Assembly: GCA_030390025.1 (NCBI GenBank)
Contig: CM059432.1
Span: 54,686,001 to 54,750,000, forward strand
Reading direction: 5' to 3'
Length of the DNA: 64,000 bases
DNA from: Squalus acanthias
Taxonomy: Eukaryota
The notes beneath the pieces were generated by a model. It was given only the letters and a program-made list of their open reading frames with translations, was not told the DNA's origin and did no database searches. Made by a program: the position numbers and the translations under genes. Below, one piece after another: positions 6 to 50,981 of the stretch (within the stretch, counting starts at the first letter, position 1; each line of letters begins with the position of its first letter).

Positions 6-362
6 CACCTCCGGTGCTGCCGACTCCTTCCGGGTCCGCGCTGTCCTCGGGTCCCGCTCTCTTTATTCTCTACCTCCGGTGCTGCCGACTCCTTCCAGGT
101 CCGCGCTGTCCTCGGGTCCCGCTCTCTTTATTCTCCACCTCCGGTGCTGCCGACTCCTTCCGGGTCCGCGCTGTCCTCGGGTCCCGCTCTCTTTATTCTC
201 TGCCTCCGGTGCTGCCGACTCCTTCCAGGTCCGCGCTGTCCTCGGGTCCCGCTCTCTTTATTCTCTGCCTCCGGTGCTGCCGACTCCTTCCAGGTCCGCG
301 CTGTCCTCGGGTCCCGCTCTCTTTATTCTCTACCTCCGGTGCTGCCGACTCCTTCCGGGTCC
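6..362. repeat. 65-bp GC/CpG-rich minisatellite, ~5.5 copies
   Basis: Unit cctccggtgctgccgactccttcc(g/a)ggtccgcgctgtcctcgggtcccgctctctttattctc(ta/ca/tg) recurs at 8, 73, 138, 203, 268 and 333. This explains the three repetitive ORFs at 14-389. Confidence 0.97.
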
Positions 363-17208: not shown

Positions 17209-17903
17209 CAGAATTCCTTCTATACCTCATTACTAAACTCTTCTGAGACATCAAGGGAGCAGCGTGGTCTGTAGATTGTGGTGGAATGGTTCCTCCTAGT
17301 TAATCTTTTTCTCCTTTGGTGTAGCCTTATCCTGCATCCCCCTGGCATTTCCTCTTCCTCCAGCTCCTATTCTGCCATCTATACAAGGACATATATGGGA
17401 ACACCCACAGTGAACCTTATGGTGAGGCTCCTTGACAGAAGGGTGAGAAACAAAAGGCTTCCCTGTCTGAAGCTGCAGAAAGGCAGCATGCAGAATTATT
17501 TCTTAATCAGCACAGCTCAGAAAAGATTTTTGTAATCACGTCACAAAGTTTGTGAACATTCAAAGCCTGTGAACTCAACCACTTCCTGGTTTAGCATGTC
17601 ATGCTTGTTACCTTCCTTAGGGAGCAGGCGCATCTTCCGTCAGCAGTCACTTCTACTGAAATTTGGCATGTATTTCAGAACGGATGTAACACTAGCATTT
17701 CTGACTTACATCCCGAATTCCAGTCCCCTACTTTTGCACCAAACAAATAAGTTGATTTGCCAGAATCCCTTAATACAAATTGGTTTACTTAGCCAACCTG
17801 CCCTTTGACACTTTAGCTAACTGATTTTGGTTGGCCATGCGCCAATGGGAATACAACTGAGATCCACCATGTGGATGATTTTGTGCATTGTTATCCAGTA
17901 TTA

Positions 17904-18505
17904 GGGGTAGAGTTTGCCCTTTGGGCGCATCCCAATCTGGGCGCAAATTGTGTTTGAAATTGTGCTGTTTTCCGAGGTGAAGTTATGGTTCAACTTTCCA
18001 CCCATAATCACAAACGTAAAATCTTCCATGAACTAGCGCAATCAGGCAGCGTAATAGAACGTAATCATTTTTTTTTCTTGCATTAAAAATATTCTTTGAT
18101 GTTTTTAAGAGTGGTAACCTGGTGCAGTTTTATTAATAAAGCTGAAAATGGTTTTAAAAAAAACTATACTGAACCATTTGCTAGTTTCATTGGTGTACAC
18201 TGTTCAGTTTCTCAGTAAATTTAAAATGTGCTTACTCATGCCTTTGCACCTAAAAAATGAGCTTTATTGGAAGCGCCTCCACGAATGGTCGCAAATAGGC
18301 GCAATCGGCAGAAACTCGCCATGCTCATTATTTCAATCTGAGGACGTGGCCAGTTTTGTGGGCGGGCCCGTCTTCCATGCAACATTTTTTAAACCATCGT
18401 TAAAGATTGTGGAAATTCGATTTACCCGCAACGTAACTTGCACTTAAATTTCCGTGATCTTTTACACTGGTTTGGTCGATTTCAGGTGGATTGCAGAACC
18501 TCTAG
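17904..18505. mobile_element. Possible old Harbinger-type MITE
   Basis: TTA followed by GGGGTAGAGTTTG, with GGCGC-rich subterminal motifs like the other MITEs. The right end is uncertain. Confidence 0.4.
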
Positions 18506-19296: not shown

Positions 19297-20249
19297 ATGG
19301 GAGAACAGGAGATGTGTTGCTGCTGCAATATGTGAGAGCTTGTGGACATTTTTGTCCAGGGCGACTACATCTGCGGTAAGTGTCTGCAACTCGAGGAACT
19401 TCGGCTCCGAGTTCAGGAGCTGGAGTCTGAGCTGCAGACATTGCGAGACATCAGGGAGGGAGAAAGTTACCTGGACCTTTTGCGCCAGGAGGCAACCACA
19501 CCCCTTAGATTAAATACTTTAGAATTGACACGTGGTCAGGGACAGGAGGGTGTGACTGCGAGTGAGGCAGGTACGGGGATCCAGGAGGTAGTATTGCAGG
19601 AGCCTCAGTCCCTGCACTTGTCCAATAGATTCGAGGTTCTTGCAACCCTTGTGGACAAGTGCGGGGACTGTGGGGAGGACGAGTAAACTGACCACAGCAC
19701 CATGGTACAGGAAGCCGTTCAAGTGGGGGGAGTAAAAAGGAAGGTGGTTGTAGTAGGCGACAGTATAGTTCGGGGGATAGACACTACTCTCTGCAGCCAG
19801 GAGCGTGAGTCCCGAAGGCTATGTTGCCTACCCGGTGCCAGGGTAAAAGACATCCCCTCTAGGCTGGAGAAGAACATGGAGTGGGAGGGGGAGGATCTAG
19901 TTGTCGTGGTCCACGTAGGTACCAACGACATAGGTAGGACAAAGAAGGAGGTTCTGCTGAGAGAGTTTAAGCAGCTGGGACTAAATTAAAAATCAGAACC
20001 ATAAAGGTCATAATCTCTGTATTATTACTAGAGCCACGACCAAATTGGCATAGGGTCAATAGGATCAGGGAGATGAATGCGTGGCTTAAAGATTGGTGTG
20101 GGAGAAGTGGATTTCAATTTGTGGGGCACTGGCAGCAGTACTGGGGACAGAGAGAGCTGTTCCGTTGGGACGGACTACACCTGAACCATGCTGGGACCAG
20201 AATTCTAGTGAATCGAATAACTAGGTAGGTAGATAGGGCTTTAAACTAA
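19297..20249 (+). pseudogene. CR1 ORF1p (zinc finger/leucine zipper + SGNH/GDSL esterase), disrupted
   Basis: YICGKCLQLEELRLRVQELESEL, followed by SGNH blocks VVVGDSIVRG, VHVGTNDIG and DGLHLN. Contains in-frame stops and a frameshift. Confidence 0.88.
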
Positions 20250-20781
20250 ATAAGGTGGGTGAGGGTCCCGGTGGAGAGAAATCTAGAATGCTAAAGAGAA
20301 AAGACAAGGAAGCAGTGCAGGAAAGTTATTGGGGTAAGGATAACCAGATTGTGCCAGGAAGAGACAAAGGAGTGCACTAACAAATAGGGTCCAGGTAAGA
20401 AAAAATGGTAATAAGACAAATAGGGGGAAAAATTAGGTCGCGCCCCGTTTGGGGCGCAAATATCGTCTGGACGCAAATATTAGCGCCTGGCGCTAATTAT
20501 CGCCACTGACTGGAAACTTCACTTTTACCGCCCCGGGAGGTGAGTGGAGCGCTAAATCAGGCGCTGCACACCTGTCTTAAGGCGCAAAGGCCGAGCAGTG
20601 AGGCGCTAACTCAGCGCGCGAGCACAGCGCAGGTGCTGCCAGTTAGCGAGGGAACACAGACACACTGGCGCCGGCCAGTTCTTAAAGCGGTGGGGGCCAA
20701 CTTGCTCCCCAGCCACACCCTGCTCATTGCAGCCTTGAATCTCGGCCTGGAGAGACCTGTGAATCCATTTTGCTGCCAAGG

Positions 20782-22601
20782 ATGGAGAGGGTGAGAGAAC
20801 GAGCTCAGCGCTTCACCGAGCGGGCCTTGGATGCTCTGGTTGGCGCGGTGCAGCGCAGAAGATGTATACTCTTCCCTGAGAGTGGCAGGAGGCCTTTGCC
20901 ACACGAGTACAGAAGAGTGTGGAGGGAGGTGGCTCAGAGCGTCTCCTCCAGGAGCATGGTGCCCAGGACCCATGTTCAATGCCGCAAAAAGTTCAACGAC
21001 CTCACTCGGGTCGTCAGGGTGAGTGGCTTTTTCTCAATACCTCTCCATCCCTCCATCTCAACCTCACTCTATGGCCAGAGGGTCTTAAAACCCCAATGCA
21101 CAACACTCATCCAACACCTATGGCCCTTTCATGAAACACACACACACATTCCACACTTTGCATACAGTAAGGGCTATTCACCTATGGGAGGCACATCAGG
21201 CAAGACCATGGCTGCATACAGTAAGGGCTATTCACCTATGGGAGGCACATCAGGCAAGACCATGGCTGTATATTTACTCAGATGCTGTCCTTTTTCTTGC
21301 AGGCCAAGCTGGCACATAATAGGAGACAGCAGCAACGGACAGGTGGAGGGCGGCCTCAGCTGCAACCCCTCAGCGATCTTGAGGAGCGCGTCCACAGGAT
21401 TGTGGCAAGCCGGGTGATCAGTCCCGTCGCCACTGGAGACGCCGACCCCGTTCTGGACAGCAATGGTAAGGTCATCACCTTTTTGTCCTCTGTCCTTCCA
21501 CTTGTCCCTCACAATACCAGCCTTTGACACTTTCAATCCAACTTGCTAACTCGCTGCACTTATTCCTCCCTTACTGCCACCCTGTCCTCACGCTAAAGCC
21601 ACTCTTGTACCTCCCTGCTTTCAGATGGTGATTCACCAGCTGAGGAGACGGGCCCTGAAGCTGCCAGTGGGAGTGAAGCTGCAGCCGAGGAGGAAGAGGA
21701 AGCCGGAGCATCAGTGCCACCCTCTCCCGAGGAAGCCCATGCCCACACTGGGAACACGCCTTCCCTGGAGGGGAGCAGGGGGGAAGGGTCTGATGAGGGT
21801 GAAGCTCCAGGACCCAGTGGGCTGCAGCAACGCCATGGGGGTAGGGAAGAATGGGGGCCTTGTCCCCAGAGGGAGAGTATGCCAGAGACTCCTACTGCAA
21901 TGGACGCAGAGGAGGAGCGGCTGATCGCAGAAATGAACACCCAGGCGGTGGGCATGCACACTGAGCTCATGGGTGCAGTGGGAAGGGTGCCCGAATGCAT
22001 TGAGTCACTGGCAAGGAGTGTGGAGCACTTCGCTGTAGCACAGGCGGATGCCACACTAATGCTTAGTGCTGCAATTCAGTCACTGACTGCCGTGATCCCA
22101 TCTCTGACTGCTCTCATGCAGACTCAGATTGAGGCCACGCGAGCACTGACTGCTGCCAACCTCGATGGTTCGTTCACATGTCCCCGGGGCTCTCACCGCG
22201 CCGCAGCAGGCCAGCAATCTGTGCTCCAGCAGATTGCTCCGGATGCTGAAGTGCTGCCCCGTGGGAGTGCCAGTGTGTCGGGCGAGCAGGGAGTTGCTGT
22301 CCTCTCTCACGATGACAGCATTCCTGCTGCCAACACTGTCACTTCTCCACTGCACTTGCCACCGCCTGTAGGACAGACTGCTGCCGCCCATGCAGAGTTG
22401 GTGCAGTCTGCAGCCGGGCCCTCCAGGCCCAGAACTGGTCGAGGCCGTCCTTCAGGGGCATCTGCAGTGTCAGGGTCTGACGATCAGCAGCCTTCCACCA
22501 GCCTTGCTGCAGCCACTGAGGTCCCATTACGGAGGAGCAGTAGGGTTAGAAGGGGGGAAGTGCGCAAGGGAAGGAGATCACCCTCGAAGGGCAAAAAGTA
22601 G
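20782..22601 (+). CDS. Harbinger Myb/SANT-like DNA-binding protein, 458 aa; exons 20782-21018, 21303-21465, 21625-22601
   Basis: MERVRERAQRFTERALDALV...VWREVAQSVSSRSMVPRTHVQCRKKFNDL. GT-AG introns have compatible phases (0 then 1). 237+163+977 = 1377 nt with no internal stop. Confidence 0.88.
21159..21268. repeat. Perfect 54-bp tandem duplication in Myb gene intron 1
   Basis: tgcatacagtaagggctattcacctatgggaggcacatcaggcaagaccatggc occurs at 21159 and 21213. Confidence 0.95.
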
Positions 22602-22913
22602 GAGGTGTGACAAAATGCTGGTCATTTTTTTATTAAAGGCCGAGGTTCGTGGTCCAACTTTTGTCTAGTGTTTTGGACATTATCTCTAGGTTGTGAGAAC
22701 CAGTTATGTTAATGACTGTTTTTTTGTGTTTATTTCTATGAGTTTGTCATGAGGAAATGACACACACAGAGTTTGTAAAATAAATAAGTTTTTGTATTCA
22801 AAATATACATGTTTGGTGTTTGGAATCATTGGTGCCTTGGCCGGCTTAGGGGTTGCGTGCTGGGTTCATTGATGTTGTTAGCAATGGCAGAAGCCATTTC
22901 CACAGCAGGGGCC

Positions 22914-24074
22914 CTAGAAGCGGCTTGCTATCAACCGTTGACGGACGGCCCTTGCAGTTTCACCATTGTGGGCCGCCCTCCCGCCTTGGTGCTGCTGATG
23001 ATCATCCTCCTCGTCCTCTTCCTCCTCTTCCTCCTCCTCCTCTGGTGGTGCTCCAAGGCCTGTTGGCATTGGCTGGGTCCTGACGATTGCCATGTTATGC
23101 AACACGCAGCACACAACTACGAAGTTGGATACTCGCTCAGGCGAGTACTGCAGGGCTCCTCCAGAATGGTCGAGACAGCGGAACCATTGCTTCAGCACGC
23201 CGATTGTGTGCTCAATGATGTTCCTGGTAGCTTGATGGCTCTCGTTGTACCGCAGCTCAGCAGGGGTGTTGGGCGTACGGAGCGGTGTCATCAGCCAGGT
23301 GCTCAATGGATACCCCTTGTCCCCGAGAAGCCAACCAACTGGCTGATGCGATGCCTTGAAAAGTTCTGCCACAGTAGTCTGGCGCAGGATGAAAGCATCG
23401 TGGCAGCTGCCAGGATAGTGGGCATTGACAGCGAGTATCAGCTGTCTGTGGTCACAGACCAACTGAACATTCAAGGAATGGAACCCCTTTCTGTTCCAGA
23501 ATTCCTCGGCATTCTCATGTGGAGCACGCAAAGCCACATGCGTGCAGTCAATGGCGCCCTGCACCATGGGGAAGCCCGCTATCCTCGCAAAGCCCAGAGC
23601 GCGGTCACGCTGCTTGTCTGGGGTCATGGGGAAAGAGATGAACTCTCGTCTCCTTTTAAAGAGGGCATTTGTGACCTGCCGGATGCAGCAATGCACCGCG
23701 AACTGGGAGATATTGGCGAGGTCCCCAGCAGCAGCTTGAAATGAGCCAGTAGCATAGAAGTTGAGAGCCACTGTGACCTTCACTGCCACCGACAGAGACG
23801 TCCTGGACCTCAGTTGAGGCTGCAGATCTGGCTGCAGCAGGTGGCAGAGCTCAGTGACCACCTCCTTGCTGAATCGCAGCCTTCGCAAACACAGCTCCTC
23901 AGACATATGAATGTAGGAGAGCTGTTCACGATATACCCTGGGAGGGTAAGCTCTCCTGTACATACGCCTGTTGGCCCTCCTCCGTCTGGCCATCATTGCC
24001 ACTCTCTCTCTGCGTCTCTGTGTCCTCCGATTCAGCTGGAGCAGGACGACGCCCCCAATCAGTGCAGCCCCCAT
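22914..24074 (-). CDS. Harbinger DDE transposase (HARBI1-like, DDE_Tnp_4 family), 386 aa from the first ATG
   Basis: Uninterrupted ORF with catalytic motifs GAIDCTHV, LLGDKGYP and RNIIEHTIGVLK, plus NRKGFHSLNVQLVCD, YPGSCHDAFI, an HTH region (ALNFYATGSFQ) and an acidic C-terminal tail. Confidence 0.96.
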   Translation of the reverse strand: MGAALIGGVVLLQLNRRTQRRRERVAMMARRRRANRRMYRRAYPPRVYREQLSYIHMSEELCLRRLRFSKEVVTELCHLLQPDLQPQLRSRTSLSVAVKVTVALNFYATGSFQAAAGDLANISQFAVHCCIRQVTNALFKRRREFISFPMTPDKQRDRALGFARIAGFPMVQGAIDCTHVALRAPHENAEEFWNRKGFHSLNVQLVCDHRQLILAVNAHYPGSCHDAFILRQTTVAELFKASHQPVGWLLGDKGYPLSTWLMTPLRTPNTPAELRYNESHQATRNIIEHTIGVLKQWFRCLDHSGGALQYSPERVSNFVVVCCVLHNMAIVRTQPMPTGLGAPPEEEEEEEEEDEEDDHQQHQGGRAAHNGETARAVRQRLIASRF

Positions 24075-24614
24075 AGTCTCTTTGCAAGCAAAGTTATGAA
24101 GGACAGCAACCAAAGTAGCAGCGAAGTTAGGATCAGTAGGCAAAACTACCTCACAAAGCGTTGACTCAATGCAGAAGTCTCTCTTTCTCTCTCTCCGAAT
24201 CTCTCTCTCTCTCTCAGAACGAGTGGTGCAAAAATGTCAACCACAGAAAAAGACAGGAAGAGGCCCCCTTTAAATAGCGCCCCCCCCAGCCCCACAGCGA
24301 TTGATAGCGTTCCAGTCTTCCGGTCGTTGGATGCGCCAGGCGGTAAGGCAGGGGGCGCCACTCAATTTCCGCTCCGGGGCGCCACAAGGGCGTTGCACCA
24401 TGGAATGACGTCACAATCTGCGCGCGCAGGTGGTCGCGGCGGTAAGGTTTAGCGCCGCCGCACAATGTCTAGTTAAGTTCCCGAGCGGCGCAAACATCGC
24501 TGCGCCCGGGCGCTAGCGGCTTTGCGCCCCATTAGCGCCCTCTTAAGGCGCTAACGGGAGGCGCAACCAACTGAATTTTTACCCCATAGAGCCATAGTAC
24601 AAAAAAATGTTAAA

Positions 24615-27455
24615 ATGTCTAAAAATGTTAAAAAGACAAATCTAAAGGCACTGTATCTGAATGCACGAAGCATTCATAACAAGGAAGGCGAATTAACAGT
24701 GCCAATAGATGTAAACGGATACGATATAATTGTGATTACGGAGACATGGCTGCAGGGTGACCAAGGCTGGGAGCTGAATATCCAAGAATATTCGATATTT
24801 AAGAAGGACAGGCAAAAAGGAAAATGAGGTGGGGTGGCATTGTTAGTAAAGGATAAAATCAGAGCAATAGTGAGAAAGGATATTGGCTCAGAAAATCAAG
24901 ACATAGAATCAGTCTGGGTGGAGCTAAGAAGCACCAAGGGGCAGAAAACATTGGTGGGAGTGGTCTATAGGCCTCCAAACAGTAGTGGTAATGTAGGGGA
25001 TGGCATCAAACAGAAAATTAGAGATGCATGTAACAATGGTACTACAGTAATCATGGGTGACTTTAATCTACATATAGACTGGCAAAAACCAAATTAGCAA
25101 TAATACTGTGGAGGATGAATTCCTGGAGTGTGTACGAGATGTTTTTTTAGACCAGTATGTTGAGGAGCCAACTAGGGAACAGGCTATCCTAGATTGGGTG
25201 TTGTGCAATGAGAAGGGGTTAATTAATAATCTTGTTGTGCGGGGTCCTTTAGAGAAGAGTGATCATAACATGATAGTATTCTTCATTAAGATGGAAAGTG
25301 AAGAAGTCCAATCCAAAACTAGGGTCCTAAATCTAAACAAAGGAAACTACGAAGGTATGAGGAGTGAGTTGGCTATGATAGATTGGGGAGCTTCATTAAA
25401 AGGTATGACGGTGGATAGGCAATGGTTAACATTTAAGGAAGGAATGCATGAATTGCAACAGTTATACATTCCTTTCTGGAGCAAAAACACAAAAGGAAAA
25501 GCGGCCCAACCATGGCTAACAAAAGAAATTAAGGATAGTATTAGATCCAAAGAGGAGTCATATAAAGTTGCCAGAAAAAGTAGCAAACCTGAGGATTGGG
25601 CGCAGTTTAGTGTTCAGTAAAAAAGGACCAAGAGATTGATCAAGAGGGGAAAAATAGAGTATGAGAGTAAACTTGCAAGGAACATAAAAACGGATTGTAA
25701 AAGCTTCTATAAGTATGTAAAAAGAAAAAGATTAGTGAAGTCAAATGTAGGTCCCTTACAGTCAGAAATGGGAGAATTTATAATGGTGAACAAGGAAATG
25801 GCAGTGCAATTAAACAAATACTTTGGTTCTGTTTTCACAGAAGAGGACACAAATAATTTCCCAGAAATGCTAGGGAACCAAGGGTCTAGTGAGAAGGAGG
25901 AATTAAAGGAAATTATTATTAGTAAAAAAATAGTGCTGGAGAAATTTGTGGGACTGAGAGCTGATAAATCCCCAGGGCCTGATAATCTGCATCCCAGAGT
26001 ACTAAAAGAGGTAGCCATGGAAATGGTGGATGCGTTGGTTGTCATCTTCCAAAATTCTATAGATTATGGAACAGTTCCTGCAGATTGGAAGGTGGCAAAT
26101 GTAACCCCACTATTAAAAAAGGAGGGAGAGAGAAAACAGGGAACTACAGACCGGCTAGCCTAACATCAGTAGTAGGGAAAATGCTAGAGTCTATCATAAA
26201 GGATGTGATAACAGGACACTTAGAAAATATCAATGGGATTAGACAAAGTCAACATGGATTTATGAAAGGGAAATCGTGTTTGACAAACCTACTGGAGTTT
26301 TTTGAGGATGTAACTGGTAGAATAGATAAGGGAGAACCAGTGGATGTGGTGTATTTGGATTTTCAGAACGCCTTTGATAAAGTCCCACATAAGAGGTTAG
26401 TGTGCAAAATTAAAGCACATGGGATTGGGGGTAATATACTGTCATGGATTGAAAATTGGTTAACAGACAGGAAACAGAGAGTAGGAATAAATGGGTCTTT
26501 TTTGGGGTGGCAGACGGTGACTAGTGGGGTACCGCAGGGATCAGTGTTTCGGCCCCAGCTAGTCACAATATATATCAATGATTTGGATGAGGGAACCAAA
26601 TGTAATATTTCCAAGTTTGCTGACGACACAAAACTAGGTGGGATTGTGAGTTGTGAGGAGGATGCAAAGAGGCTTCAAGGCGATTTAGACAAGTTGAGTG
26701 AGTGGGCAAATACATGGCAGATGCAGTATAACGTGGATAAATGTGAAGTTATCCACTTCGGTAGGAAAAACAGAATGGTAGAGTATTATTTAAATGGTGC
26801 TAGATTGAGAAATGCTGATGTACAAAGGGACCTGGGTGTCCTTGTGCACCAGTCACTGAAAGCAAACATGCAGGTGCAGCAAGCAGTTAAGAAGGCAAAT
26901 GGTATGTTGGCCTTCATTGCAAGAGGATTTGAGTACAGGAGCAAGGATGTCTTATTACAGTTGTACAGGGCCTCGATGAGACCACACCTGGAGTACTGTG
27001 TGCAGTTTTGGTCTCCTTACCTAAGAAAGGATATACTTGCCATAGAGGGAGTGCAGCGAAGGTTCACCAGACTGATTCCTGGGATGGCAGGTCTGTTGTA
27101 TGAGGAGAGATTGGGTCAACTAGGCCTGTATTCACTAGAGTTTAGAAGAATGAGAGGGGATCTCATTGAAACGTATAAAATTCTGACAGGGCTAGACAGA
27201 CTGGATGCAGGGAGGATGTTTCCCCTGGCTGGGGCGTCTAGAACGAGGGGTCACAGTCTCAGGATACGGGGTAGGACATTTAGGACTGAGATGAGGAGAA
27301 ATTTCTTCACTCAGAGGGTGGTGAACCTGTGGAATTCTCTACCACAGAAGGCTGTGGAGGCCAAGTCACTGAATATATTTAAGAAGGAGATAGATAGATT
27401 TCAAGACACAAAAGGCATCAAGGGGTATGGGGAGAGAGTGGGAATATGGTATGGA
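24615..27455 (+). pseudogene. CR1 ORF2p (APE endonuclease + reverse transcriptase), disrupted
   Basis: YLNARSI, ITETWL, GVVYRPP, MGDFN and SDHN (endonuclease); [21 protein letters not shown] and KFADD (RT). Stops at ~24825, 25095 and 25618, and a frameshift near 26115. Confidence 0.95.
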
Positions 27456-27654
27456 GATAGAGGATCAGCCATGATCATATTGAATGGTGGAGCAGGCTCG
27501 AAGGGCCGAATGGCCTACTGCTTCTCCTATTTTTCTATGTTTCTAAATATTTACGTTGCGCTACCTTGGAATCATTTAGGTTTCAATCAAGCTCGTTGTA
27601 AAAGTATTAGTAGGTTCTTCCAAATTTGACGATTGCTGAGAAATAAATAGAGGC

Positions 27655-27768
27655 TGTTTGTGTTTGTGTGTTTTTATGTATATGTGTGTATTTGTGTGTG
27701 CATGTTTATATGCATGTTTGTATGTCTGTTTAATGTTTGTTTGTGTATGCTTATGTGCGTGGGGTGGG
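27655..27768. repeat. Degenerate (GT/AT)n simple repeat
   Basis: tgtttgtgtttgtgtg...tatgtgtgtatttgtgtgtg run. Confidence 0.7.
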
Positions 27769-40817: not shown

Positions 40818-43151
40818 AAATTTGGTTACCTAGTCATCTGAATTATCAAAAAGGTGACAATGACATTATTATGTAGATGTAACTTCATCACTGCAACAAC
40901 ACACATATGCTGGTGGTCAGAATTCTGAGTTTAGAATTCAAGGCTAATTAAGTACAAATATTCAGGATGTATCTGGAATGGCCCAGATTGCCTAATACCA
41001 GTCCCAACATAAATGGAGCACAGACAGTAAATATTAGTGGCTGTATTAAAATAGGTGGAGCAATGGCTAATTTTGTGAGGAACTTTTCTCGTTGGCAGCA
41101 CCAATCAGAAAATAGTGGGTGCACTACCCACAGTGTTCTGATATTCACTGCCAGAGAGTTTCCATTGAAGTGTGAAAGAACTGAATGTTATGTGCACCTG
41201 AGAGTTTGTGACCTGATGGAAATTGGTGTATGTAGAGTGAAAAGAGTAGACAGGGTAGATTGAAGCAGATCATTGATGTGAAGAAGAAACAGAGTAGGAG
41301 AGAGAGCATGTACATAGAGTTCACACATACATTATGAGCTTTTACATTTTGACTTTTTCTTAAGCCGGTCCCCGTGTAAGGAAAAAATCATAAAAAGCTA
41401 GTTATGAAAGAACAACAGCAGGTGAAAAGGTAGAGGCCATGTATTTATTCACATAGCTTTGGGTAGTACCTTGTATGCCTGCTTAATGGCCAGTGAGCAT
41501 CTAGTCTCCAACTTGGTTTGGGCCTTAGACCAACATCTGAAATGAATCTTGGATAACTTGGTGTTTTTGGTTGGTTCGAGTCCTTTAATATTCCTTTAAA
41601 AGGAATTTGCATGCAAATCCACATGTTTTTTTCAACATTAAGTAGGGTATCAATCTCACTGTGGGCTAAGAAGAGATAAAACTCAACGTTAGTTCCACAG
41701 AATGAAAGTAATGGCCCCCCTTTCTTTATAAACAGCAATTTTTGTATTTATTTCAAATCTATGTTGTTGTCCATTCAATTTTACAGACCAGAGATCATAC
41801 TTGATGGATATGGGGCACTTCTTATATATTGGAATAAGCTGGTAAAAATAAGTCATCCTAGTTATTCACCCAGAATATGAGGACTAATACCAACCTGTGA
41901 GGTCATAGGCAGCAGTCTTTTTTTCTATTGCCTGCTGATGTCACTTCTGAAAGATTATAACCCTTTTCAGTGAATAACAGCACAAATTATATTAAGTCAT
42001 ATGTATACATCTCATCCAATCACATTTGAGATTAAATTTCAGGGTATAATATACAGCTACTGACTGTATGTAAAGGCAATAGTGCTAAAACATGGCCCCA
42101 GTTTCAAAAGCTAAGTGCATTGTTGCATATTCAAGGTCAAATTTGTAACCTGTGGGTCAAAATTTTAATATTAAAAAGGCAGAAATACTGCAAGTACCAG
42201 TCTCAGATTGGTACCTTTATAGAGCAGCATAAGATCAGCTGATTTTATTTAATACTGACACCAGCCTGGAACTCTACACATGTATACTTGCACATGTGCA
42301 GAGCTCCACTCAGTCACTTCCTAACACCAGGTAAATTTTAATGTTAGGAGAGAAGGGACAAGAGCATGGCTCTCTGCTGTCATTAAAGATTCACATTTTT
42401 ATTTACAAAGTTCCCTTGTGGTCTGTTGGACTGCCTAGGATCCTATTAGACCACAGCCTGTGTGAAGCCCAAGCAGTGTGAAACTAGCCCCTGGAGCTGG
42501 TCTCACACTTCATGCTTTATCATGGTAGGGAGTCAGACTAGGAACTGACCCCTGAGCTATACTGACTCTTTTGCATTAATACACATCTGAAACTGCTTCC
42601 CAGAGATACAAAAGTGATAGTATAAACAGCCCACTAGAGGAAAATCTTCTGTCAATACCTGTTCTATTATAAGTTTATACTGTGCATTTGCTAGTACCAT
42701 AACCGTATGCAACCAGTTTACTGAGGAATGACTGAGGCTAAGGATCACTTAGCTGTGAGGTCCCTGAGACAGCATTAGTTTTATGTGTCTTAATGTACCC
42801 ACTAAGTCAAAAAGATTGTTGAACAAAATAATGTTATGTCATTTGAGCTTATTACATGGAAAACACTAAACCAACGATTCAATCATTTTCATTATTCAGC
42901 AAAATATGCTAACCATTAGTATTGACAGTGAGACACACTACACTTAAAATCTGGCCATCAATTGTCAGATTAGTAATAATTAGAGCAACATTTTAGCCAT
43001 AGTTGCTATAGTAATAATATTTCTGTATCTTTGGATGCAGAGTACTAGTGCAAAATATTATATCTGGCATCAACTGATGACAATTATTACACACACTGAT
43101 GAGCTGTCTAGCTATAGTTCTGGATGATGCTACTTCTAAACAAAACATTTA

Positions 43152-43916
43152 GGGGGTGAAATTCCCCTTGTTTGCGCCTCCGGTGGGAATGGCTTTTCAC
43201 TCCCCCTCCCCCGAGGCGATAACCGCGCCTCCCGTGAAATTCCGCAGGAGGTTAGCGCCGGTGCTATCGGGTATCGCCCCGATCTTCTGCGCCCAGAGAT
43301 CATGACGTCATCTCCGGGCGCAGCGCCCCGATAGTGCCTCAGGAGAAAAATTCCCCCTCGTACCCCGCAGCAGCGCCGGGCGATGATATCGACTGCTGCA
43401 GGGGTCGCGAACACTGAGGCCGGCCACTCGCAGGGCACCATTTAAAGGCGCGGTGGCCGATCGAGATGAAAAAATCGGCAATTTTTTTTTTTCTGAGCAC
43501 CAGACGCAGGCTGAGTGCCGCAATCGGTCAGCCCGGCTCAGTCAGCCCAGCACTCAGCTTGAGTGCCGAGCTGATCGCGTGGCACTCCCACACCCTGGTG
43601 CTCCAGCAGATGCCGAAAAAAATGCAGAGCTCGCAGCGGGGAACCCTTCCCTTTAATTGAGGGAAGAGCCCCTGCAATGCGGCAGCGCCACGCATGGCCA
43701 CACGTGGCGCTGCTGAGCACATCGCCCCGAATCGGGACATTCCCCGCCTCTTGTGCTCCAAGAGGCAAGTGGAGCGCTTGATTTAGCGCTCCACTTCCCT
43801 CTTGGAGCAAAAAATGGGAATTTCTCAAATGTTTGTAAAGGTTAGCGCCTGGCACTAACTTTTCAAACATTTTTGACTTAGCGCCTCAAATGGCCCTCTT
43901 GGGGAATTTCTCCCCC
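43152..43916. mobile_element. PIF/Harbinger MITE (765 bp), same family as 1059-1770 and 20423-24585, in inverted orientation
   Basis: 16-bp TIR GGGGG(T/A)GAAATTCCCC. Canonical TTA TSD at 43149-43151 and 43917-43919. Multiple TTAGCGCC motifs. Confidence 0.93.
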
Positions 43917-49753: not shown

Positions 49754-50240
49754 AATTATTCATTAATTGTTACTCTGCTGTGGCTCCCATTTACTTTTTA
49801 TTTCCTCTGGGCTGGGAGCAAAGAAGAAATCAGTACCTTGCAAAAGAAACAAATTAAAAGTACAGAGCTGCATTGCCTGTTGCTCTGAAGTAGAGAACCA
49901 ACTGATGCCCTTGTCTTCCCATTTATTATTAAGCAGAAGAATGTGAGCGGGGAGCTCATGCTGGTGAGTAGCAGCATGAGGCAGATATCAACGCTACAGG
50001 TTTTGCTTACCTGGGCAGCATGCTAACGCTGTGGGAGATCAACAGTGAAAACACTGAGGAAATCATGTGGCTGCGCCAAGAAGGTTCTTCCCCAAGTTCA
50101 AAACACAAACAGAAAGAGGAACATAGCAGTATTGATGTTATTGTAACAGTACTCCCAAATTCATTACCAGCCTTAATTCCACTTCACCTTTTCCCCCTGC
50201 TTTACCTGTATTTTTCATTTGCTTTCCCATATAAGTTAAT

Positions 50241-50981
50241 GGCCCAGAAATTCGCCTCTCCGGCTTGCCTGCGGTGGTAAGGATCGTGCGCGCACTTACC
50301 TACCGCGCCTGCCGTTGTGTTTTGGGCCCACGGGAACTTCAGCTCCTGGGCCTGTTCCAACTGCTGGCGCGCAGTGCGTGCATGTCCCAGGGGCGCAGTT
50401 AGTGCGATGCATCCCCTGGGATCACGTGGGCCATGGAGAGCCAATGGCAGCAGACCATCTTTCATTCATAGATTTGACAGGACCTGTCAAATCTGTGAAT
50501 TGAAATCGGCCCCAAAAGAACAGCTAAACTTAAAATAATTTTTTTTTAAAAACCATCACATTTATAAAATAACTATAGTTAAATAAATTAACCACTTTAA
50601 ACAAAAATTTAAATTTTTGAAAAAATTAAAATACTTTTTAAAAGTGATAAAAATAAACTTACCTTTCTTTAAAGTATCTAAAAAAGATAAACCTGTTAAT
50701 TAACCACTTACCTTGTTGAAAACGGGTCTTGCACCTCCTTTTCATAAGCGTAGGTTCTTCACTACTTACCCTCCCGTAGAAACCTGAAAAAAAATCTAAG
50801 TTTGCTGCGTGCGCGCAGCCTCTACCGCGCACGCGGTTCACCTAGGAACCACCCCCTTCACCAGACCGGAAGTTCCGGTTTCCCGCGCATGCGCAGTCCA
50901 TGCAGGAAACCGGCACTTCGGGATGTCTTACGGGTGATTACGCACTGTGTACTCACCTGGGAAGGGCCGAATTTTTGGCCC
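50241..50981. mobile_element. Harbinger MITE (741 bp)
   Basis: TIRs GGCCCAGAAATTCG / CGAATTTTTGGCCC. TSD AAT at 50238-50240 and 50982-50984. GC-rich ends and an AT-rich core. Confidence 0.88.

Follow-up and report, generated by a model that had tools for sequence, protein, structure and literature searches.

The question raised by positions 20423-24585 of a 64,000-nucleotide stretch of Squalus acanthias DNA (contig CM059432.1, positions 54,686,001 to 54,750,000; the whole stretch is called the window below) is whether the two-gene Harbinger transposon located there can still move by its own means. A previous reading of the sequence alone had proposed that this copy may be naturally competent, a proposal which our analysis does not support: the differences between the copy and its family are mostly protein-changing, a tryptophan occupies position 297 of the transposase, and selection is not required for frames to stay open at about 1% divergence. 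The element is a well-preserved copy of an abundant two-gene Harbinger family that was inserted in an older CR1 long interspersed nuclear element (LINE); it has likely been drifting neutrally since, and is probably fixed and ageing. It is composed of the following parts, given with their target-site duplication (TSD) and terminal inverted repeats (TIRs).

20423-24585: Harbinger element, 4,163 bp, two convergent genes
20420-20422: left TSD, ATA, from the sequence and the empty-site joints
24586-24588: right TSD, ATA, from the sequence and the empty-site joints
20423-20438, plus strand: left TIR, 13 of 16 bases matching the right TIR
20423-20781, plus strand: left end, CpG-rich, with GC-rich palindromes (CpG observed/expected ratio 0.82)
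20782-21018, plus strand: Myb exon 1, ATG at 20782, 79 codons, DNA-binding domain
21019-21302, plus strand: predicted intron 1, GT..AG, 284 bp, splice supported by homology
21303-21465, plus strand: Myb exon 2, homologues aligning through the exon 1-2 junction
21466-21624, plus strand: predicted intron 2, GT..AG, 159 bp, top homologues aligning across the junction
21625-22601, plus strand: Myb exon 3, ending at the stop codon
22914-24074, minus strand: DDE transposase, 386 residues, single exon, D176/D252/E288
24075-24585, minus strand: right end, CT microsatellite, CpG-rich subterminal region (observed/expected ratio 0.98) and right TIR at 24570-24585

Boundaries, host and genes of the element

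Four public sequencing runs (X1, X11, X16, and X21) were mapped on positions 19800-25200 (5.4 kb, CR1 flanks included). Six contigs in run X1 and one in X11 contain empty-site joints that skip 4,166 bases, that is, the 4,163 bases of the element plus 3; because these element-free contigs skip the element together with 3 bases, ATA is a true 3-bp duplication, as had been claimed from the letters, and once the element and one ATA are removed, the CR1 frame runs without a break into the beginning of the endonuclease. The flanks have a 21-bp look-alike in common, and a chance origin of the ATA pair was ruled out by the same joints. To the left of the empty site, X11 carries three substitutions and a 13-bp insertion at a depth of 24.4, the same as that of the joint; since these differences adjoin the site at the joint's own depth, the empty sites were judged to be paralogous. 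They resemble further CR1-family copies rather than the orthologous locus, and as such they prove the duplication and are silent on polymorphism.

The predicted TIRs were also found, as short and imperfect repeats: the left end from 20423 and the reverse-complemented right end from 24585 agree in 13 of 16 bases and in 11 of the outermost 12, and GGGG begins both ends. The description of the element as CpG-rich holds for its two ends and fails for its genes, as the observed/expected ratio is 0.41 in the Myb gene and 0.55 in the transposase, against a window mean of 0.47. The left end, which is likely to serve as the binding region of the Myb protein and as the Myb promoter, includes a 33-bp palindrome that is also present in another element of the window (43152-43916, see below).

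The CR1 LINE that hosts the element is divided by it into two parts.

19336-20422, plus strand: 5' part of the host CR1, with open reading frame (ORF) 1, an esterase-like domain, stops and a frameshift
24589-27629, plus strand: 3' part of the host CR1, with the endonuclease-reverse transcriptase ORF2, two stops and two frameshifts

ORF1 gave a weak match to Lipase_GDSL_2, under the Pfam cut-off, while ORF2 matched RVT_1 (E=2.6e-30), and about seven stops and frameshifts are carried across both ORFs. The nesting in this CR1 makes the Harbinger element the younger of the two; the earlier statement that it sits in a CR1 with several stops and is younger than its host was borne out by the broken ORFs and the nesting.

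The transposase matched all 158 profile positions of Pfam DDE_Tnp_4 (E=3.2e-39, 134.5 bits against a cut-off of 24.8), and Plant_tran was matched as well. Its frame is open over 386 residues, and D176, D252, and E288 occupy the triad columns of the homologues, confirming the unbroken transposase with three catalytic residues that the sequence-only reading had described. A structural model built on an 80-row alignment reached a predicted local distance difference test (pLDDT) score of 89.5, and it resembles the DDE transposases piggyBac (Z 9.4, root-mean-square deviation 5.4, 232 residues aligned) and Tn5 (Z 8.8, deviation 5.5, 243 aligned), with scores in the middle range; a model made without an alignment was uninformative (pLDDT 38.5). 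None of the solved structures was matched by sequence or by Foldseek at E<=0.001, the structure searches found no solved Harbinger transposase, and a search for a phage match found none. The sequence search returned 392 hits, and among the 120 listed nearly all were shark or ray proteins named 'putative nuclease HARBI1', with a best identity of 66%. In a quick tree of 41 rows the transposase fell within a 17-row elasmobranch clade (Shimodaira-Hasegawa-like approximate likelihood ratio support of 97), which points to a shark as the likely host.

The second gene encodes a Myb/SANT protein, whose exon 1 matched Pfam Myb_DNA-bind_5 (PF13873; E=1.3e-9, 38.3 bits against a cut-off of 21.7). Joining the three exons at GT..AG sites yields an open frame of 458 residues. 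With exon 1 alone, 70 homologues were found (including P0121), 57 of which align beyond residue 100 of the spliced protein, compared with four that align beyond residue 100 of the read-through frame; homologue P0125 aligns with the spliced protein over residues 5-455 at 37%. These alignments across the predicted junctions support the splice model, and the convergent Myb/SANT gene with a 458-residue frame stands as it was first described. The top named homologues belong to Pristiophorus japonicus and other elasmobranchs; a homologue search with exon 3 gave no match, and one homologue came from querying longer proteins with exon 1. The two genes converge, and AATAAA/ATTAAA motifs lie on both strands between their stops. 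No GT..AG joint occurs among the 15 of 66 joints that were listed, and none of the runs that carry the family is recorded as RNA, a blank that has no bearing on expression. Run X11 was considered as RNA and rejected, since it covers intron 1 (141 bases without a difference, depth 433) as well as the CR1 flanks; it is therefore DNA-like and no test of splicing. The poly(A) RNA run X21, which bears a different species label, gave 33 reads (about 12% of the run), all on the CT microsatellite; its organism is not established as a carrier, and the result carries no weight. Predicted intron 1 also holds a perfect 54-bp tandem duplication (21159-21266).

Family abundance and probable neutral drift

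At least half of the 31-mers of the stretch were present in 18 of the 23 listed runs, which come from seven studies with species labels A-D and two unlabelled, and the shares range from 0.51 to 0.77 across the four species labels. The mapped holder runs carry labels A and D, not B or C, and runs with shares of 0.07 or below were left out. In X1 (about 55% of the run), 45,296 contigs were obtained, flanks included: 9,038 at 99% identity or more, 16,184 at 95-99%, and 20,074 at 90-95%; the contigs are too short for counting copies, and read depth is no copy number. Depth peaks at both ends of the element, and joints 20557-24248 and 20557-24564 represent internally deleted derivatives. The family is clearly highly repetitive and includes both older and younger layers.

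The distance of the studied copy from the closest listed contigs is about 0.5-1.4% (4 differences in 786 bases in X11, 26 in 1,866 in X16), as measured on five of the seven element pieces per run, the two most divergent having been dropped as other subfamilies. From 223 difference rows, 40 picked by support were available, of which 22 lie inside the element and 16 are coding. At nine of the 16 coding rows, a different letter accounts for at least 79% of the X1 depth and 100% of the X16 depth; the remaining seven were mixed between runs and were excluded. These nine clear differences comprise eight protein-changing ones, namely E24Q, R41H, R210W, and S213C in the Myb protein and R193W, P242S, R297W, and M324V in the transposase (family residue first), and one silent one; four of the nine are CpG-type transitions. 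A share of eight in nine fits the neutral expectation of 0.69 (P=0.29) and does not fit a ratio of nonsynonymous to synonymous change (dN/dS) of 0.2 (P=0.0005). The probability that both frames stay open at 0.5-1.5% neutral change ranges from 0.68 to 0.025, depending on the assumed indel rate, and many open copies are therefore expected in a large family without selection. The open frames of this copy likely reflect its limited age rather than present activity.

At position 297 of the transposase, arginine is found in 80 of 116 homologues and tryptophan, the residue of the studied copy, in two. Among 40 picked relatives, all 38 covering rows have arginine; these relatives consist of two fish clusters and twelve others, and their rows are not independent. 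The studied copy has tryptophan at both 193 and 297, and most contigs of the family encode arginine. In the structural model, position 297 ends a predicted helix (271-297) that bears E288, and the change from arginine to tryptophan beside this catalytic helix likely weakens the transposase of this copy.

According to the low mutation rate given in an article on the epaulette shark (7e-10 per base per generation, PMC10587355), 0.5% would correspond by hand arithmetic to about 7 million generations, a figure too large for literal use, as the rate belongs to a different species, CpG sites mutate more quickly, and part of the differences may have been inherited from the parent copy. Nevertheless, a distance of 1% in a shark argues for millions of years rather than a fresh jump, and the insertion has probably reached fixation and an age of millions of years. 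The element would thus have been cut and pasted into the older CR1 LINE and then left to neutral drift. As described for Harbinger3_DR and Ping/Pong, both proteins are required, the Myb protein binds the TIRs and the transposase and provides nuclear delivery, 3 bp are duplicated on insertion, and excision is mostly clean (PMC2836001, PMC3016246). By analogy, the Myb protein of this family would bind the ends of the element and carry the transposase to the nucleus and place it on the TIRs, where the DDE transposase would excise the element and reinsert it with a 3-bp duplication.

Competing explanations

It seems unlikely that the copy belongs to a young and still-mobile subfamily as an autonomous, naturally competent element whose differences are tolerated subfamily variants. 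Such competence would agree with the intact triad, the confident DDE-transposase model, the intactness of both frames and of all four splice dinucleotides, the CpG-rich ends, and the 9,038 X1 contigs at 99% or more. Several further observations weigh against drift, the first two of them also in favour of competence. The transposase agrees with 133 of the 136 columns whose conservation reaches at least 70%, the best score among the 77 rows; the column set has position 297 (69%) just outside it, and the homologues were picked by their likeness to the query. At the corresponding site 23186, arginine accounts for just 38% of the X11 depth; Trp297 may therefore be a shared and propagated variant, common to other copies in X11, rather than private decay. 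His289 and Val324 are common among homologues and probably harmless. Several listed contigs are identical to the studied copy over 133-209 bases, the 8:1 count of changes rests on a small and support-picked subset, and the age is an upper bound, because the parent copy may contribute and organism A is not established as the species of the window. On the other side, in each of the three DNA-like runs at least 99% of the depth differs from the copy at seven coding positions, six of them protein-changing; the copy has lost the near-universal Arg297 and has an imperfect left TIR, and the presence of the family under at least four species labels fits an old expansion. We likewise consider it doubtful that this copy or a sister from the youngest subfamily is natively active with relaxed, NWA-type targets, which would be the first native two-protein Harbinger from a cartilaginous fish.

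A recent horizontal transfer into several shark species, in which the low divergence would stem from a recent invasion and not from slow vertical inheritance, is very improbable. The studied copy is about 98-99% identical to contigs of organism D, the 31-mer shares are high under four species labels, and horizontal transfer of Harbingers has been published for sea kraits (PMC8437027) and from salmonids to carp (PMC9179366); however, the species labels are coded and may stand for close relatives, the transposase lies within the elasmobranch clade of the tree, and the many contigs at 90-95% suggest a long residence. Lastly, the idea that selection keeps one or both genes in the service of the host, as with HARBI1, NAIF1, or the MSANTD genes, can practically be set aside: the frames are open, homologues are labelled 'putative nuclease HARBI1' in databases, and domestication of Harbinger genes has been repeated in vertebrates according to a published account (PMC9392472), but domesticated genes (HARBI1, NAIF1, MSANTD1-4) are single-copy, free of TIRs and TSD, and under purifying selection, whereas here the TIRs and TSD are intact inside a dead LINE, the differences are mainly protein-changing, no homologue exceeds 66% identity among the best rows of the 392 hits, and the high repetitiveness of the family largely refutes a single host gene.

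Classification, related systems and neighbouring elements

With a DDE transposase, a Myb/SANT second gene, TIRs, and a 3-bp TSD, the studied copy has the features of the broad Harbinger (PHIS) superfamily, in which TIRs are described as usually short with A or G as first base (PMC4482050). The narrow PIF/Harbinger group of Han et al. 2015 has the TSD TWA, and NuwaI, NuwaII, and Pangu have CWG, C|TNA|G, and ANT, respectively (PMC4482050). ATA is one base off TWA, in a comparison of a single copy with a family-consensus feature, and with its flanks (...CAA, GAG...) it fits none of the other three; the element is therefore filed in the broad superfamily only.

Zebrafish Harbinger3_DR/Harbinger3N_DR resembles the present family in its DDE and Myb-like proteins, TIRs, 3-bp duplication, and non-autonomous derivatives (PMC2836001, PMC3016246). 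It differs in that Harbinger3_DR was reconstructed as a consensus, transposes in human cells, and targets AAACACCWGGTCTTT (PMC2836001, PMC3016246), whereas the studied copy occurs naturally in the genome and is flanked by ATA; the likeness concerns the features just named. Harbinger-Snek of sea kraits is similarly high-copy, with intact two-gene copies and deletion derivatives, and its own activity is inferred (PMC8437027). As reported there, 269 fully intact copies occur in Laticauda colubrina and one in L. laticaudata. Harbinger-Snek differs by RNA reads over both genes of the single intact L. laticaudata copy and by a documented horizontal origin (PMC8437027), whereas the nearest relatives of the studied copy are elasmobranch. 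Rice Ping/Pong-mPing shares the two-protein logic, the 3-bp duplication, and derivatives of the miniature inverted-repeat transposable element (MITE) type, but it comes from a plant, its natural activity is proven, and its duplication is usually TAA/TTA (PMC2836001).

The nearest proteins are those of Pristiophorus japonicus, Heptranchias perlo, and other elasmobranchs, with at most 66% for the transposase and 37-38% over 340-450 residues for the Myb protein; they are annotated as 'putative nuclease HARBI1' and 'myb-related transcription factor', and such distances indicate a different family. These relatives are mostly damaged, D-D-E being kept in 50 of 111 covering homologues, while the studied copy keeps all three residues. 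Among them, at least five tight clades of 'HARBI1-like' proteins (P0004/P0005, P0008/P0012, P0018/P0021/P0065, P0042/P0045, and P0006/P0013/P0014/P0022) have short branches across distant sharks and rays, and the inspected rows are without the catalytic Glu; these clades look like several separate domesticated transposase genes lumped as HARBI1 by databases. In all 13 rows of a conserved 362-residue Harbinger transposase-derived protein of sturgeons and paddlefish (P0107, P0207-P0218), Asp replaces the catalytic Glu, and the protein is likely to come from a domesticated gene. In addition, a 79-member cluster of 351-residue Harbinger transposases (P0082, P0193-P0206), which are at least 90% alike, includes four cyprinid genera among its named members and keeps the triad in full-length rows. 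As a vertebrate Harbinger that was active recently or spread horizontally, this cyprinid cluster is a better candidate than the studied copy.

Intact and transcribed vertebrate Harbingers are already published, in sea kraits (PMC8437027). Han et al. count 88 PIF/Harbinger families as potentially active (PMC4482050), Harbinger expression is reported in teleosts (PMC9179366) and newt (PMC5741667), and a bee Spy element of this superfamily is reported to be natively active (PMC11304231). According to a 2022 survey, no Harbinger was present in elephant shark, and checks of other cartilaginous fish were called for (PMC9179366); in the whale shark and grey reef shark genome papers, Harbingers appear as a repeat class only (PMC8455134, PMC12498223). 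Our literature search, with Repbase, subscription papers, supplements, and Zhang et al. 2024 outside its scope, found neither an account of this shark family nor a cell assay of an unmodified vertebrate Harbinger. The copy is a clean and fully delimited elasmobranch example and a small addition to the cartilaginous-fish record, as well as a good template for a transposition assay. If its native proteins work, it would provide a reconstruction-free two-component transposase from a vertebrate for studying how the Myb protein and the transposase cooperate and how targets are chosen, and could be used in place of the reconstructed zebrafish element; absent activity, it is ordinary mobile DNA.

Two smaller Harbinger-type elements, both non-coding, were also identified in the window. 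The first (1059-1770, 712 bp) has a CAA duplication and lies within the reverse transcriptase region of another CR1, and its empty site aligns without gaps with the CR1 at 24589-27700; the first 12 bases of its left end equal those of the right TIR of the main element, and over its right 250 bp it is 73% similar to the right end of the latter. The second (43152-43916, 765 bp) has a TTA duplication, and its 33-bp subterminal palindrome is 88% like that in the left end of the main element. The TSDs of the three insertions (ATA at 20420-20422, CAA at 1056-1058, and TTA at 43149-43151) all follow NWA, which is looser than the textbook TWA, and two of the three lie within CR1 copies. A lone Harbinger-like right end is located at 17209, a GGCGC-rich decayed element at about 17900-18400 (start near 17910), and a GC-rich element near 50240-50450. 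The start of the window (7-362) is occupied by a 65-bp tandem repeat of 5.5 copies with 97% matches.

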